A DNA stretch of 64,000 bases, from positions 10,788,001 through 10,852,000 of the forward strand of contig OX597839.1 in the NCBI GenBank assembly GCA_951406725.2. Reading direction: 5' to 3'. The notes beneath the pieces are model-generated. The model saw only the letters and a list, made by a program, of their open reading frames with translations. It was not told where the DNA came from and made no database searches. This stretch comes from Octopus vulgaris (lineage: Eukaryota). Both the position numbers and the translations under genes were made by a program. This document shows positions 4,225 through 40,293 of this stretch, in pieces; the first letter of the stretch is position 1, and every line of letters begins with the position of its first letter.

Positions 4225-7200
4225 TTAGATTCAGTTTTACTAGAGATTTTAGACTCAAGCCCAGGACTCAAAACATCAGACACAGTCTCAATAGTGATTT
4301 TGGACACAGTGTTAGTGTCCTAAATATTTAGATTCAGTTTTACTAGAGATTTTAGACACAAGGCCGGGACTCAAACATCAGACACAGTCTCAATAGTGAT
4401 TTTGGACACAGTGTTAGTGTCCTAAATCTTTAGATTCAGTTTTACTAGAGATTTTAGACTCAAGGCCAGGACTCAAAACATCAGACACAGTCTCAATAGT
4501 GATTTTGGACACAGTGTTAGTGACCTAAATCTTTAGATTCAGTTTTACTAGAGATTTTAGACTCAAGGCCAGGACTCAAATCATCAGACACAGTCTCAAT
4601 AGTGATTTTGGACACAGTGTTAGTGTCCTAAATATTTAGATTCAGTTCTACTAGAGATTTTAGACACAAGGCCAGGACTCAAAACACCAGACACAGTCTC
4701 AATAGGGATTTTGGACACAGTGTTAGTGTCCTAAATATTTAGATTCAGTTTTACTAGAGATTTTAGACTCAAGGCCAGGACTCAAAACACCAGACACAGT
4801 CTCAATAGGGATTTTAGACACAGTGTTAGTGTCCTAAATATTTAGATTCAGTTTTACTAGAGATTTTAGACTCAAGGCCAGGACTCAAATCGTCAGACAC
4901 AGTCTCAATAGTGATTTTGGACACAGTGTTAGTGTCCTAAATATTTAGATTCAGTTCTACTAGAGATTTTAGACATAAGGCCAGGACTCAAACATCAGAC
5001 ACAGTCTCAATAGTGAATTTGGACACAGTGTTAGTGTCCTAAATATTTAGATTCAGTTTTCCTAGAGATTTTAGACTCAAGGCCAGGACTCAAAACATCA
5101 GACACAGTCTCAATAGGGATTTTGGACACAGTGTTAGTGTCCTAAATATTTAGATTCAGTTTTACTAGAGATTTTAGACTCAAGGCCAGGACTCAAAACA
5201 TCAGACACAGTCTCAATAGGGATTTTGGACACAGTGTTATTGTCCTAAATCTTTAGATTCAGTTTTACTAGAGATTTTAGACTCAAGGCCAGGACTCAAA
5301 ACATCAGACACAGTCTCAATAGTGATTTTGGACACAGTGTTAGTGACCTAAATCTTTAGATTCAGTTTTACTAGAGATTTTAGACTCAAGGCCAGGACTC
5401 AAAACATCAGACACAGTCTCAATAGTGATTTTGGACACAGTGTTAGTGACCTAAATCTTTAGATTCAGTTTTACTAGAGATTTTAGACTCAAGGCCAGGA
5501 CTCAAAACATCAGACACAGTCTCAATAGTGATTTTGGACACAGTGTTAGTGTCCTAAATCTTTAGATTCAGTTTTACTAGAGATTTTAGACTCAAGGCCA
5601 GGACTCAAATCATCAGACACAGTCTCAATAGTGATTTTGGACACAGTTTTAATGTCCTAAATCTTTAGATTCAGTTTTAATGGAGATTTTAGACTCAAGG
5701 CCAGGACTCAAAACATCAGACACAGTCTCAATAGTGATTTTGGACACAGTGTTAGTGACCTAAATCTTTAGATTCAGTTTTACTAGAGATTTTAGACTCA
5801 AGGCCAGGACTCAAAACATCAGACACAGTCTCAATAGTGATTTTGGACACAGTGTTAGTGACCTAAATCTTTAGATTCAGTTTTACTAGCGATTTTAGAC
5901 TCAAGGCCAGGACTCAAGACATCAGACACAGTCTCAATAGGGATTTTGGACACAGTGTTAGTGTCCTAAATCTTTAGATTCAGTTTTACTAGAGATTTTA
6001 GACTCAAGGTCAGGACTCAAAACATCAGACACAGTCTCAATAGTGATTATGGACACAGTGTTAGTGTCCTAAATCTTTAGATCCAGTTTTACTAGAGATT
6101 TTAGACTCAAGGCCAGGACTCAAAACATCAGACACAGTCTCAATAGGGATTTTGGACACAGTATTAGTGTCCTAAATCTTTAGATTCAGTTTTACTAGAG
6201 ATTTTAGACTCAAGGCCAGGACTCAAATCATCAGACACAGTCTCAATAGTGATTTTGGACACAGTGTTAGTGTCCTAAATATTTAGATTCAGTTTTAATG
6301 GAGATTTTAGACTCAAGGCCAGGACTCAAAACATCAGACACAGTCTCAATGGTGATTTTGGACACAGTGTTAGTGACCTAAATCTTTAGATTCAGTTTTA
6401 CTAGAGATTTTAGACTCAAGGCCAGGACTCAAACCATCAGACACAGTCTCAATAGTGATTTTGGACACAGTTTTAATGTCCTAAATCTTTAGATTCAGTT
6501 TTAATGGAGATTTTAGACTCAAGGCCGGGACTCAAAACATCAGACACAGTCTCAATAGTGATTTTGGACACAGTGTTAGTGTCCTAAATCTTTAGATTCA
6601 GTTTTACTAGAGATTTTAGACTCAAGGCCAGGACTCAAAACATCAGACACAGTCTCAATAGGGATTTTGGACACAGTGTTAGTGTCCTAAATCTTTAGAT
6701 TCAGTTTTACTAGAGATTTTAGACTCAAGGCCAGGACTCAAAACATCAGACACAGTCTCAATAGTGATTATGGACACAGTGTTAGAGTCCTAAATCTTTT
6801 GATTCAGTTTTACTAGAGATTTTAGACTCAAGGCCAGGACTCAAAACACCAGACACAGTCTCAATAGGGATTTTGGACACAGTTTTAGTGTCCTAAATCT
6901 TTAGATTCAGTTTTAATGGAGATTTTAGACTCAAGGCAAGGACTCAAAACATCAAATACAGTCTCAATAGGGATTTTGGACACAGTTTTAGTGTCTTAAA
7001 TCTTTAGATTCAGTTTTACTAGAGATTTTAGACTCAAGGAGAGGACTCAAATACTCAGACACAGTCTCAATAGTGATTTTGGACACAGTTTTAGTGGCCT
7101 AAATCCTTAGATTCAGTTTTACTAGAGATTTTAGACTCAAGGCCAGGACTCAAAACATCAGACACAGTCTCAATAGTGATATTGGACACAGTTTTAGTGT

Positions 7201-9470
7201 CCTAAATCTTTAAATTCAGTTTTACTAGAGATTTTAGACACAAGGCCAGGACTCAAACATCAGACACAGACTCAATAGTGATATTGGACACAGTTTTAGT
7301 GTCCTAAATATTTAGATTCAGTTTTACTAGAGATTTTAGACTCAAGGCCAGGACTCAAAACATCAGACACAGTCTCAATAGTGATTTTGGACACAGTGTT
7401 AGTGTCCTAAATATTTAGATTCAGTTTTACTAGAGATTTTAGACACAAGGCCGGGACTCAAACATCAGACACAGTCTCAATAGTGATTGTGGACACAGTG
7501 TTAGTGTCCTAAATATTTAGATTCAGTTTTACTAGAGATTTTAGACTCAAGGCCAGGACTCAAATCATCAGACACAGTCTCAATAGTGATTTTGGACACA
7601 GTGTTAGTGACCTAAATCTTTAGATTCAGTTTTACTAGAGATTTTAGACTCAAGGCCAGGACTCAAAACATCAGACACAGTCTCAATAGTGATATTGGAC
7701 ACAGTTTTAGTGTCCTAAATGTTTAGATTCAGTTTTAATGGAGATTTTAGACTCAAGGCCAGGACTCAAAACATCAGACACAGTCTCAATAGTGATTTTG
7801 GATACTGTGTTAGTGACCTAAATCTTTAGATTCAGTTTTACTAGAGATTTTAGACTCAAGGCCAGGACTTAAAACATCAGACACAGTCTCAATAGTGAAT
7901 TTGGACACTGTTTTAGTGTCCTAAATATTTAGATTCAGTTTTAATGGAGATTTTAGACTCAAGGCCAGGACTCAAACATCAGACACAATCTCAACAGGGA
8001 TTTTGGACACAGTTTTAATGTCCTAAATATTTAGATTCAGTTTTACTAGAGATTTTAGACTCAAGGCCAGGACTCAAACATCAGACATTCTCAACAGGGA
8101 TTTGGGACACAGTTTTAGTCTCCTAAATATTTATATTCAGTTTTACTAGAGATTTTAGACTCAAGGCCAGGACTCAAAACACCAGACACAGTCTCAATAG
8201 GGATTTTGGACACAGTGTAGATGTCCTAAATCTTTAGATTCAGTTTTACTTGAGATTTTAGACTCAAGGCCAGGACTCAAAACATTAGACACAGTCTCAA
8301 TCGAGATTTTGGACACAGTTTTAGTGACCTAAATCTTTAGATTCAGTTTTACTAGAGATTTTAGACTCAAGGCCAGGACTCAAAACATTAAACACAGTCT
8401 CAATAGAGATTTTGGACACAGTGTTAGTGTCCTAAATCTTTAGATTCAGTTTTACTAGAGATTTTAGACTCAAGGCCAGGACTTAAAACATCAGACACAG
8501 TCTCAATAGTGAATTTGGACACTGTTTTAGTGTCCTAAATATTTAGATTCAGTTTTACTAGAGATTTTAGACTCAAGGCCAGGACTCAAACATCAGACAC
8601 AGTCTCAACAGGGATTTTGGACACAGTTTTAATGTCCTAAATATTTAGATTCAGTTTTACTAGAGATTTTAGACACAAGGCCAGGACTCAAACATCAGAC
8701 ATTCTCAACAGGGATTTTGGACACAGTTTTAGTCTCCTAAATATTTATATTCAGTTTTACTAGAGATTTTAGACTCAAGGCCAGGACTCAAAACATTAGA
8801 CACAGTCTCAATAGAGATTTTGGACACAGTTTTAGTGACCTAAATCTTTAGATTCAGTTTTACTAGAGATTTTAGACTCAAGGCCAGGACTCAAAACATT
8901 AGACACAGTCTCAATAGAGATTTTGGATATAGTGTTAGTGACCTAAATCTTTAGATTTAGTTTTACTAGAGATTTTAGACTCAAGGCCAGGACTCAAAAC
9001 ATTAGACACAGTCTCAATAGTGATTTTGGACACAGTGTTAGTGACCTAAATCTTTAGATATAGTTTTACTAGAGATTTTAGACTCAAGGCCAGGACTCAA
9101 AACATCAGACACAGTCTCAATAGAGATTTTGGACACAGTGTTAGTGACCTAAATCTTTAGATTCAGTTTTACTAGAGATTTTAGACTCAAGGTCAGGACT
9201 CAAAATATCAGGAACAGTCTCAATAGTGATTTTGGACACAGTTTTAGTGTCCTAAATATTTAGATTCAGTTTTACTAGAGATTTTAGACTCAAGGCCAGG
9301 ACTCAAAATATCAGAAACAGTCTCAACAGGGATTTTGGACACAGTGTTAGTGACTTAGATCTTTAGATTCAGTTTTACTAGAGATTTTAGACTCAAGGCC
9401 AGGACTCAAAATATCAGACACAGTCTCAATAATGATTTTGGACACTATGTTAGTGTCCTAAATCTGTCAA
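4225..9470 (-). repeat. Homogeneous 103-bp higher-order tandem repeat (dimer of the 52-bp unit), about 51 copies
   Basis: gacacagtctcaatag at 4381 and 4484 (period 103). The halves actagagattttagactcaagg... and atagtgattttggacacagtg... are both diverged 52-mers. Confidence 0.95.
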
Positions 9471-10099
9471 CACAGCTTCAAGAGTTTAAACTGAAGGATA
9501 GTGATCAAAATCTTCACTAATAAAAGCCAATGATCTAAAACTTTAGATACAGATTCATTACATATTTTAGATATAAAGATGCTGATTGAAATACTGATGT
9601 CAGTTCTTGGGTCAGTGATTTAGATCTTTCATCTTGGTGTTACTAGAGATTTCAGACTCATGGTGAGTGACCTAAAACATTAGACACTGTCTCAATAGTG
9701 ATTTGGCGCACAATATTAGTGGCCTAAATCTTTAGACACAGCTTCATTAAATATTTTAGAGCAAAGGCCAGGGAACTAAATCTTGACAAAGCTTTACTAA
9801 AGATCTGGGCACAGGTTGAATAACAATTTCAGACCACTGGTAGATGATTTAAATCTTTAGTCTCGGTTTTAAACTCGATGTCAGTGACCTAAAACATTAG
9901 ACACGGTCTTAAGTGATATGGGACCCAATGTTTGTGACCTAAATGCTTAGGCATAGCTTCACTAGAGATTTTAGACCCAAGTTCAGTAGTCTAAATTTGC
10001 AGACACAGCTTAACTAAAAATTTTTGACCGAAAGACAATGATCTAATCTTTAGACACAGACTCACTAGTAATTTTAAACCTAATGTAAGTGATATAAAT

Positions 10100-19384: not shown

Positions 19385-19475
19385 AAAATAATAATAATAA
19401 ATAATGATAATAAATAATAATAATAACATCGAAAAATACCTTAGGAATGAGAACTCCGGTTCAAAATTTCCTCAA

Positions 19476-19521
19476 GACACCTGATGAAGGCTGGAGGGTA
19501 TATCAGCCGAAACGTTGTGTT
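19476..19521 (+). ncRNA. Minimal type I hammerhead ribozyme motif (HH-A), Penelope-like
   Basis: gacac-CTGATGA-a-ggctg-gagggtatat-cagcc-GAAAC-GTT-gtgtt. Stem I 5 bp, stem II 5 bp, loopless palindromic stem III (aacgtt), GUU site. Confidence 0.85.
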
Positions 19522-19847
19522 AACAACAAACAAGATGAGGGCAAATATCCGTCAAATGTAAATAATGTAAAGAGTGCAACACCCTAACCACTAAGTCATT
19601 ATCTGCTCGATTATATTGCTTGCATTAATTCTCAAATCTCTAACACACAACATGCATTCAGACACAGCTCTCACTGCTACAGTACGTACATCCTCAAATC
19701 ACCAGCTTTATAACTGACAGAATGTATATCATCAGAGCACTAAACCTTAAATCATAATCCTTTATGACACCATACCTAAATCTTTAGAACCTTGGCCTTC
19801 AGTCTGAAATTTTAATCAAACAGTTTCTAATTCCTTAGATTACAAAA

Positions 19848-22057: not shown

Positions 22058-22788
22058 ACTCCTTCCTCTCATTTGTCCAATCCTTCCACCCTGCCCTCGA
22101 ATACTCCTATACTGTTTCCAACACTTCTGTCGCATTTCTCGACATTTCAGTCAACACACACAACTCTGCTCTCACTACTTGCATCCACTACAAACACACC
22201 GACTCACACTCACCTTAACTTCTCTTCTCACCCTACCCTCACCAAGCTCTCCATCCCCTACTCTCAATTCCTCCGTCTGCGCAGGTTCAGACTCAACACA
22301 TGGCTCGCCACTTCATCCTTCGTGGATATCTCCTCACCATTATCCACAAAGCCATCGCCAGAGCACGTTCCGTGGACCATACCTCTGCTCTCTCTTCCCG
22401 CACCCGCCCCGCCATTGTCATCTCCCATTTCCCCTCACTTACCACCCCTCCACCGCACCATTTTCCGAGTCTTCCAGCGACTCCAGTCCGACCCCTTCAT
22501 AGGCATCCAACATCATCCGTATCATACCACCGACTCCTTTACCCGCATTTCTAGCAACGTCATTTACTGCATCTCCTGCTCTTTCTGCCCCTCTCTGTAT
22601 ATTGGTCAAACGGGACGCCACTTGGCTGGCCAGTTCGTGGAGCACCTCTGAGACATCAGACTTGGCAATGACACCCCAGTCAGGAGAGATAGAAACAAGG
22701 AGAGCATCAAACTAATACACCTGCTTGTTGTTCCTACACCTGTCTTCGTCATTTGTTTTTCTGTAAATTTCAACTGCTTATATATACA

Positions 22789-38524: not shown

Positions 38525-38825
38525 AAAGAACTGATGAACATGGATACGAAGACTAGAAAAGTGTTGACAGTGCATGGAGCCGTCCACCCTAAGAGTGACA
38601 CTGATGGGTCGCACTTGTCCAGAAGAAAGGGTGGGAAAGGTTTAATCATTTGCCAGAACTATATCGAAGAGGAGGAAAACAGTTTAGGACGGGATGTAAA
38701 AAGTACCGCGGAACCATTGTTGAAGCATGTGAAGAAGGCCGGTGTCATTAAAACTGGTGTGTTAAGAAAGAAAAGGCTTAAAGAGGAAAAGAACACAAAA
38801 ACCGAAACAGCATGGAAGGAGATGC
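38525..38825 (+). pseudogene. R4/Dong-like LINE RT C-terminal fragment
   Basis: MDTKTRKVLTVHGAVHPKSDTDGSHLSRRKGGKGLI matches the D.KTRK.LT..G..HPKSD..RLY..R..GG.GL signature. Confidence 0.75.
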
Positions 38826-38864
38826 TGTTTTTTGAGATCAGTGACGAAAAGTTACTCTCTCTTT

Positions 38865-39260
38865 TACTCTTTTACTCTTTTACTTGTTTCAGTCATTTGA
38901 CTGCGGCTATGCTGGAGCACCGCCTTTAGTCGAGCAAATCGACCCCGGGACTTATTCTTTGTAAGCCCAGTACTTATTCTATCGGTCTCTTTTGCTGAAC
39001 TGTTAAGTGACGGGGACGTAAACACACCAGCATCGGTTGTCAAGCAATGCTAGGAGGACAAACACATACACATATATACATATATATACATATATACGAC
39101 TGGCTTCTTTCAGTTTCCGTCTACCAAATCCACTCACAAGGCATTGGTCGGCCCAGGGCTATAGCAGAAGACACTTGCCCAAGATGCCACGCAGTGGGAC
39201 TGAACCCGGAACCATGTGGTTGGTTAGCAAGCTACTTATTACACAGCCACTCCTGCGCCT
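38865..39260 (-). mobile_element. Full-length SINE-B
   Basis: Reverse complement of the family consensus. Confidence 0.9.
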
Positions 39261-39321
39261 ATTTAGTTACTGGAAAAATGACATAAGTATTTGCATTGGG
39301 ACCCCTTTCATCGAAAACCAG

Positions 39322-39378
39322 TGATTGGCGTACGCTGATGACAGGTCAATACCTAGAAACTGCAGTCCGTGCGTATCA
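39322..39378 (+). ncRNA. Extended type I hammerhead ribozyme (HH-E) with a GUC cleavage triplet
   Basis: tgat-tg-gcgtacg-CTGATGA-c-aggt-caat-acct-a-GAAA-ctgcag-TC-cgtgcgt-atca. Stem I 7 bp plus bulge plus 4 bp, stem II 4 bp, palindromic stem III. Confidence 0.85.
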
Positions 39379-40293
39379 TTTAGGTTGACGAGGGAAGGAT
39401 GACCTCCCTTTGCAAATACCGTTAGGGCACAGAAAGTGTGCCTATGGCCAGCTGGAGGAGATGTTCTCCTGGGGCTACAAGCTACAGTAACACCGACCCT
39501 TAGTGGTTAGCCATATTGAGATGGCAAATATACCTCACAAATAATAACATAATTAATAATTATAATTTCTTTAATAATGATAATAGTAATTATTATTGTT
39601 ATTATTATTTGCTGTTTTTGTTGTATTTCATCCTATAATATTATTTTCAATGTCTAGGGACCTTGTGATCAATAGATGAAATTATCATAACTACAGTCAT
39701 TATTATTATTGTTGTTGTTGTTGTTGTTGTTATCACTATCATCATCATCAACAACATTCTCCTTTTTCTTCTTCTTCTTCTTCTTTAATATTATTATGGT
39801 GATGATAGGGAAAATTATTCAATCGGTCAAAATATTTATTTCCCATTCTTATTCGCATTCTATCAAACCAGTCACTCGTCATATTTATGAACGAATATAT
39901 TAATAAATTAATATACGAATAAATGAATAAATTAATACATTAATTAATTAATGTTAGATACATACGTAAGTTCGGTCATTGCCTCCTCACAGACGTCAGG
40001 CGATTCCCCAAATCCCTCTAAATACGCATACTTGCATACATGTATACATATATTCATACAAACATATATACAGGCATAACAGCGTGTGCATGCACACATA
40101 CACATACACGCAGACACACACACATAAACATGCATACATACATAAATATGGCAAAGATACAAGCATGCATTTATAATGAACATGCATACATGCATAACAT
40201 ATGTATACATACATGCATCCATATAAGCATATACACCTAACATTTTTTTTTTTTTTCTCTGTCTTCCCTTCTCGGGATCTTTCCTTCTCCTTT

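Follow-up and report, generated by a model that had tools for sequence, protein, structure and literature searches.

Hammerhead-bearing retrozyme-like repeats of Octopus vulgaris and the LINEs that insert at a fixed word within them

Metazoan non-LTR retrozymes were described from mussel (350-390 bp), axolotl (Rtz_353/HHR_Amex2) and coral by Cervera and de la Pena (2020, PMC7229834), in the main text of which cephalopods are absent. According to that text, stem II of the axolotl HHR_Amex2 ribozyme is mismatched at its base, and cleavage is stronger in the dimer. For retrozyme dimers of Xenopus, eight of nine were reported without cleavage in a preprint (bioRxiv 10.64898/2026.07.22.740005). As regards Penelope-like elements, uncleaved RNA was described as the main template of the anole element and ribozyme mutants were inserted normally (PMC11167929); the tail of such insertions was explained there by two internal start sites downstream of the hammerhead. 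Inverted partners were described as typical of Penelope-like insertions (PMC8557442), and a U3-A8 covariation has been noted in the Penelope-like elements of schistosomes (PMC4209133). Some Tx1 elements have U2 genes or other transposons as their targets, the target-specific members of the clade including Tx1L (into Tx1D), Keno (into U2) and crocodilian Tx1-Mar (into Mariner-N4), and 'satellites' are given among known Tx1 targets in the legend of Fig. 3 of the same work (Kojima 2015, PMC4494074). Two points are open for animal retrozymes, namely their mobiliser and their transcription; the Penelope two-start signature and the U1/U2-type motif reported below make both directly testable.

The DNA analysed here (the window) was a stretch of 64,000 nucleotides from Octopus vulgaris. 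The feature under study is very probably a genuine member of a non-LTR retrozyme family and, by itself, an ordinary new one. With the metazoan retrozymes as described in PMC7229834 it shares a type I hammerhead with extended stem I, a non-coding unit of ~350 bp, a GC content below 45% and the occurrence of tandems, and with HHR_Amex2 the mismatch at the stem II base and the 2-bp stem III. Unlike those retrozymes, as far as they are portrayed in that source, the octopus copies are mostly dispersed monomers or partial tandems rather than long arrays, and the octopus subfamilies, known here from genomic sequence, swap core and stem II variants. A first new point of the analysis is a LINE with a fixed target in a retrozyme. 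Neither a cephalopod retrozyme nor a retrozyme-targeting LINE was found in the full-text literature searched, with Repbase, subscription journals and supplements outside its scope.

A ~250-nt GC-rich island at 39295..39545 with a (TAA)-like ending had been proposed by the sequence-only reading. GC content was 48% over these 251 nt and 44% over the full unit. The real element is a 354-bp unit, the window copy of which (38826-39539, + strand, single ribozyme) starts far upstream of the proposed island, represents unit positions ~56-354 and is split by an inserted repeat which we take to be a SINE; the (TAA)-like sequence beyond 39539 belongs to the flanking DNA and is no tail. The parts of the window copy were as follows.

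38826..38856 (+): 5' piece of the retrozyme, unit positions ~56-86, with a T-run, ATCAGTG and the first copy of the SINE duplication
38837-38843 (+): ATCAGTG, putative snRNA-type promoter element and 5' arm of a covarying hairpin
38850-38856 (+): AGTTACT, first copy of the SINE target duplication, read directly from the sequence
38857..39264 (+): unrelated abundant SINE-like repeat inside the retrozyme copy, with a 7-bp duplication
39265..39539 (+): main body, unit positions 80-354, with 95% identity to a natural reference unit (L006)
39287..39309 (+): upstream arm of a modelled long-range stem, predicted to pair with 39390-39419 and to extend stem I
39310..39323 (+): empty target word of L1/Tx1-type LINEs, ~14 bp of which are duplicated upon insertion
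39310 (+): predicted transcription start
39321..39334 (+): 5' strand of stem I (distal 5 bp, internal loop, proximal 6-7 bp)
39335..39367 (+): hammerhead core, stem II, GAAA, palindromic stem III and GUC, with the predicted cut after 39367
39368..39379 (+): 3' strand of stem I
39390..39419 (+): downstream partner of 39287..39309 in the long-range stem, an alternative pairing to the hairpin at 39391-39409
39426..39539 (+): conserved hairpins in which compensatory changes occur, up to the first fixed 3' end at 39539

The SINE parts the putative promoter element from the predicted start, and the motif is thereby displaced by ~415 bases. Because only one ribozyme is present, the window copy could not yield a circle by itself, and it falls outside the definition of an 'active' retrozyme as worded in the 2026 preprint (two consecutive ribozymes). 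With one ribozyme, a displaced promoter element and an empty target site, it is probably inert.

By direct reading, CTGATGA was located at 39335-39341, stem II at 39342-39355 (CAAT loop, basal C·A), GAAA at 39356-39359, the stem III palindrome ACTGCAGT at 39359-39366 and GTC with its C at 39367; the CUGAUGA/GAAA core, the GUC triplet with a cut after C39367 and the palindromic stem III that had been claimed were thus all confirmed. The conserved core and the three helices are in type I order. The C·A mismatch noted at the base of stem II is also present and is the norm of the family, and the extended stem I was found as described: it consists in the window copy of 7 bp followed by a bulge and a distal stem, its internal loop being 3x1 in most family copies and a UG bulge in this one. 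The letters of the proposed CAAU loop are in place; its closing U-A is broken in 17/54 distinct copies, and a six-base loop II is the better description. No frame of at least 120 aa in the window covers the ribozyme. When the 64-kb window was scanned with a descriptor on both strands, two matches were obtained, the retrozyme hammerhead and one at 19481. The latter is a small Penelope-type hammerhead (19467-19522, CTGATGA at 19481) with a long stem II and minimal stem III. Among the Penelope-like terminal repeats that were inspected, none matched the sequence of the retrozyme, which had been suggested to be distinct from the minimal Penelope hammerheads nearby.

Comparison with Hammerhead_1 by Infernal, a check proposed at the outset, gave no hammerhead match for the window copy even at E<=10; on the whole window nothing reached the Rfam gathering level, and the matches at E<=10 were unrelated, mostly to microsatellite-driven microRNA models. 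A subfamily-B copy was aligned over all 45 positions of Hammerhead_1 (RF00163) with 18.1 bits and E=0.03, below the gathering threshold of 34 bits. The fold of the 251 nt is weak (z=-1.85), and in the minimum-energy fold of the window monomer stem I was kept and the core was mispaired with stem III, at ~9 kcal/mol below the hammerhead fold. The three downstream hairpins named earlier lie where they had been placed, one of which (39391-39409) competes with the covarying long-range stem. The window copy by itself is unpersuasive as a ribozyme, and the case is carried by the family evidence.

For the stretch, 3,628 first-look candidates were obtained from the 2.8-Gb genome, 40 of which were scored (39 at other places), with 93-96% identity for the best matches among them. 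The unit length of 354 bp was derived from tandem overlaps and, at 44% GC and non-coding, lies within the range used for non-LTR retrozymes (non-coding, 150-450 bp, GC <45%). The exact core pattern of one subfamily occurred 225 times and its reversed control 0 times. Family sequence was also met by chance in 3/33 loci (123.6 kb) that had been chosen for an unrelated protein, which suggests roughly tens of thousands of family pieces. Tandems with two cores were present in 3/55 loci, and two exact cores lie 354 bp apart at G000:C11:67969241/67969595. At the level of the family at least two consecutive ribozymes, as in non-LTR retrozymes, were therefore found; the high copy number, tandems and covariation that had been set as genomic checks were all observed. 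A second retrozyme family (L069, L087, L130, L172-L201; 2,477 first-look candidates) has a unit of 365-375 bp which is colinear with the first (alignment score 161, shuffle maximum 82). Its core carries U4C, its stem II has a basal U·U, its palindromic stem III is longer, and its insertions reach up to about three units. Units of different subfamilies were combined in three single insertions (L002, L004 and L175), which suggests two RNA templates in one event.

Covariation was analysed on 59 natural copies (54 distinct), taken from 92 anchored segments after visual selection for a ribozyme region without interruptions. Two-sided changes were found in 8/20 pairs, and the covariation score was reached by 0/500 shuffles, a result inflated by kinship; slid controls gave 1-4 two-sided pairs, and all such counts reflect few inherited events. 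Position 7 was the sole core position with all four letters among the 59 copies. At positions 3 and 8, C3-G8 occurred in 47/59, U3-A8 in 8/59 and U3·G8 in 4/59 copies; the base of stem II was the canonical G-C in 8/8 U3-A8 copies and C·A in 45/47 C3-G8 copies. Stem III was palindromic in 51/59, with five different palindromes. As judged from these alignments, the core is conserved beyond chance, and the 3/8 covariation, the free position 7 and the alternative palindromes are ribozyme-specific. For ribozyme biochemistry, the core variants present among the subfamilies (C3-G8 with C·A versus U3-A8 with G-C) are a natural resource. The long-range arms that flank the ribozyme could be paired in 16/16 copies, 13/16 cognate pairs beating all 100 shuffles, and family-2 upstream arms were paired far better with family-2 downstream arms; the stem so formed would join both ends of a cut monomer. 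In the hairpin region 39426..39539, two-sided changes were found in 6/43 pairs (19 copies).

Insertions were surveyed at 55 distinct loci (60 minus 5 duplicates), which were best matches; long copies are thereby favoured, though such a choice would not impose the ends. More than one unit was present in 29/55 loci, and in 23/55 a truncated partner lies in inverted orientation, its 3' end facing outward. Of 81 segment ends, 34 were at unit positions 352-5 and 32 at 40-54, and 1 was near the cut site; two fixed 3' ends ~48 nt apart, ~170 and ~220 nt beyond the cut site, thus take 66/81 segments. The sites are varied and AT-rich, with duplicated 3' ends; duplications of at least 8 bp were counted in 17/55 loci, a figure that is without a null model and may include overlap with the element ends. 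Two fixed 3' ends, partial tandems and inverted truncated partners are the features of a non-autonomous Penelope-like element and were found likewise in family 2, and from these three features a Penelope-type mobiliser is inferred. By analogy, a Penelope-type reverse transcriptase is likely to re-insert the retrozyme, and 39426..39539 is likely to be its binding and initiation region, a role taken over from the anole system (PMC11167929).

The two fixed 3' ends, the partial tandems, the inverted 5'-truncated partner and the AT-rich sites are shared with Penelope-like elements as described for PAc of anole (Frangieh et al. 2024, PMC11167929) and for non-autonomous elements of Chlamys (PMC8557442). 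The octopus retrozyme differs from the elements of these accounts in being frameless, in a hammerhead of full rather than minimal size and in a tail of 42-49 nt versus 30-40. Autonomous partners were sought with a GIY-YIG fragment of the window, Pfam PF01541 and a divergent GIY-YIG sequence (150 of 5,700-9,900 candidates scored in each search), and among 114 Penelope-like loci of at least five families no terminal repeat shared with the unit was found, versus 24/57 Xenopus families that match known elements according to the preprint (bioRxiv 10.64898/2026.07.22.740005). Matches to the unit at Penelope-like loci were rejected as unrelated neighbouring insertions. Two further observations were made on Penelope-like sequences. 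At 22058-22651 (+) of the window lies a degraded GIY-YIG end of a Penelope-like family with 9,898 first-look candidates, the terminal repeat of which is unrelated to the retrozyme. A young Penelope-like family (L148, L153, L221:2245-4587) has many open frames of 781 aa, and its terminal repeat contains repeated GATTGGTC and TGATGACGTC motifs, a TATA-like box and a minimal hammerhead-like motif.

Taken together, a full cycle appears probable, in which a 354-bp non-LTR retrozyme is transcribed from a putative snRNA-type promoter of its own, cleaved and circularised from tandem loci and re-inserted by a Penelope-type enzyme. ATCAGT would drive transcription from the 39310 word through tandem units; two ribozymes, probably paired as a dimer, would free a 354-nt monomer, the ends of which would be held by the extended stem and then ligated. 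The Penelope-type enzyme would start internally and copy around the RNA, by which the promoter would be restored, and L1/Tx1-type LINEs would borrow the promoter of the host retrozyme.

The strongest rival, which we nevertheless consider rather unlikely, retains the Penelope-type mobiliser with uncleaved tandem read-through RNA as the template, cleavage being rare or confined to 5'-trimming, and has no circle intermediate. It accords with the single segment end near the cut site among 81, with the presence in every subfamily of some trait that weakens the ribozyme (stem II base C·A or U·U, U3-A8, or U4C), with the in silico misfolding of the monomer and with the dispensability of cleavage in vitro in the anole system (PMC11167929). 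Repeat identity was 94.1% within an insertion versus 92.7% between loci (higher within in 19/25), which is a weak sign of copying from one circle and, as an excess, small enough to suit read-through as well. Against this rival, the long-range arms that would hold the cut ends covary between families, and the retrozymes of coral, mussel and axolotl generally occur as circles according to PMC7229834. Linear templates should moreover be 5'-shortened in each round, yet 29/55 loci exceed one unit and family 2 reaches about three. The cycle through a cleaved and circularised monomer is the preferred reading.

Four loci were found to break at one unit position into a common 5.3-kb sequence, which is a LINE with a zinc-knuckle ORF1 and an ORF2 of endonuclease, reverse transcriptase and zf-RVT. 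Its best solved relative was LINE-1 ORF2p (E 1.7e-57, versus 1.4e-23 for R2), and a homologue was found in Argonauta; by its architecture we take it to be of the Tx1 type. Three full copies were bounded by a 14-bp duplication of the word 39310-39323, and the fourth was followed by the word together with a related LINE. In a search with the 3' region of the LINE (target-free query), 40 of 236 candidates were scored, including the query copy, and all 40 were at the fixed site: 36 lay in family 1 and 2 in family 2, whereas the remaining 2 were stacked before another LINE (LINE-target loci L061, L062, L063, L064, L066-L095 and L130-L141). Exact LINE 3' ends were followed by the target in 36/36 cases, which overlap the 40 and were collected with a pattern that drops matches with C at the last position. 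Host-matched duplications of 8-16 exact bases were present in 11/12 extended loci and absent from 1/12. Pairwise likeness was 97% among LINE ends and 75% among hosts, and since the LINEs are far more uniform than their hosts, the insertions are taken to be independent events and to have entered the unit later. That Tx1 elements had hitch-hiked inside a moving retrozyme was rejected, the duplications matching the host subfamily and the LINEs being more uniform than the hosts. In assembled contigs of four runs with four organism codes, unit and LINE were both covered at 85% likeness, and a joint that skips the LINE was present in 3/4 runs (main table), such contigs being without information on ends, strand or level. 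In L079, two pieces of LINE end plus retrozyme lie tail to tail around a GATA repeat.

With this evidence, the alternative reading of the unit as a LINE 3' UTR or tail, or as a SINE that a Tx1-type LINE has moved, is largely refuted and very improbable. It would account for the Tx1-type 3' ends that adjoin the ribozyme in 38/40 scored copies and for the LINE fragment that abuts the window copy; the host-matched duplications with unit sequence on both sides and the 97% versus 75% likeness point instead to later entry of the LINE, and the varied, AT-rich retrozyme sites with duplicated 3' ends are unlike those of a site-specific LINE. Neither a constant LINE body upstream nor a simple tail downstream, as a ribozyme in a LINE 3' UTR would have, was found. 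The fragment abutting the window copy is a degraded LINE frame directly upstream of it (38525-38825, +) without a Pfam match, presumably R4/Dong-like by its motif, and is a chance neighbour. Of the two alternatives in the sequence-only reading, the retrozyme-like element thus stood and the ribozyme-bearing LINE 3' UTR did not, the window LINE piece flanking 0/59 other loci and the copies being tailless. That a DNA transposon (MITE) or satellite bears a hammerhead-like motif by chance, with terminal inverted repeats as the inverted ends, is hardly credible: 23/55 loci do resemble inverted repeats and the window copy is without an Rfam match, whereas the inverted arms are free in length and missing from 32/55 loci, and the 3/8 covariation, free position 7 and alternative palindromes are specific to a ribozyme.

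L1/Tx1-type LINEs thus insert at the 39310-39323 word of the retrozyme, and one family inserts also at +1 of U2. The latter is a sister family with 82% identity to the first LINE (L263-L292; L293-L297, G000:C3:20.78-20.84 Mb and C23:43.31 Mb), in which, among 30 loci, 19 were in the retrozyme, 3 at a retrozyme-type word plus another LINE, 4 at +1 of full U2 genes, 1 at a U2 word plus LINE, 1 otherwise stacked and 2 elsewhere, giving 22/30 retrozyme-type and 5/30 U2-type cases, 4/5 of the latter in one array. Both LINE families exceed the threshold of Kojima for target specificity (>20% of copies in one target). They resemble Tx1-clade LINEs, as presented in PMC4494074, in the APE-RT-zinc-finger ORF2, the zinc-knuckle ORF1, a fixed multicopy target, a duplication of ~14 bp, stacked insertions and the linkage of U2 targets with transposon targets, and differ from those presented there in having as target a ribozyme-bearing retroelement, with its predicted start just 5' of the ribozyme, and in the use by one family of U2 +1 as well.

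The U2-inserted full-length copies have a 14-nt retrozyme-type leader whose first base is exactly at ATCG, as would be expected if the donor RNA began at that host base. Retrozyme site and U2 share little beyond ATCG. As extrapolated from 288 kb, the words TTCATCG and TTTATCG occur at ~175,000 and ~243,000 sites per genome, respectively, and because they are so frequent, targeting by a short word is doubtful. In all retrozyme rows compared, from both families, ATCAGT precedes the LINE target word by 56-60 bases. It was found at -60..-56 in 27/30 U1 loci (four distinct upstream types, most loci in one array), the other three U1 loci being of a fifth upstream type without it, and in 6/6 U2 upstream stretches with at most one mismatch (one mismatched); it was in 0/30 U6 matches, many of them probably pseudogenes, with an exact background of 0.06% of positions. 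The likeness to U1/U2 is limited to 6-7 bases, and ATCAGTG doubles as an arm of a covarying RNA hairpin. As a second new point, its position suggests an snRNA-type promoter in the retrozyme, and ATCAGT is presumably a proximal sequence element of the kind found in snRNA promoters. Newt satellite 2 reportedly has an snRNA-type promoter, an observation attributed to Coats et al. in 1994 (PMC2220036). The octopus repeat would resemble that satellite as a hammerhead repeat with an internal snRNA-type promoter, and is unlike it, as described in that source, in that the promoter is predicted from position and motif; it would be an extension from amphibian to mollusc. A variant U6 array (L311-L315, G000:C1:139.42 Mb) has octamer-like and TATA-like upstream motifs and no ATCAGT.

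LINE ends were absent from the 30 U1 and the 30 U6 loci, and the promoter motif alone is therefore insufficient for LINE targeting. The fixed LINE site marks the predicted start, which makes the LINE a natural probe of the retrozyme, and the jump between retrozyme and U2 allows one to ask which of three possible guides directs a LINE: a promoter complex, the endonuclease of the LINE or RNA pairing. A tentative extension, possible and held with reserve, is a three-tier chain of parasites, in which a promoter-bearing ribozyme circle would be copied by Penelope enzymes and LINEs would home to ATCG snRNA-type starts, guided there by the promoter complex and not solely by sequence. The retrozyme would serve them as a mass-produced safe stand-in for U2; it would also provide their transcription start, and its hammerhead ~58 nt downstream would form the 3' end of their RNA.

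Several minor observations were made at the LINE target loci. A 1.6-kb ORF1-only zinc-knuckle element is also at the retrozyme site (L301-L302, 7452-9050 of two neighbouring stretches); it ends at that site in L302, and 5' ends resembling its own occur in stacks behind further LINE copies (L290, L292). One LINE copy has a different duplicated word, AACAGCGGAC (L300:2050-2064 and 7595-7610). Short inverted fragments of the retrozyme 3' end were seen ~400 bases downstream of U2 genes (L297:950-1012 and 8270-8330).
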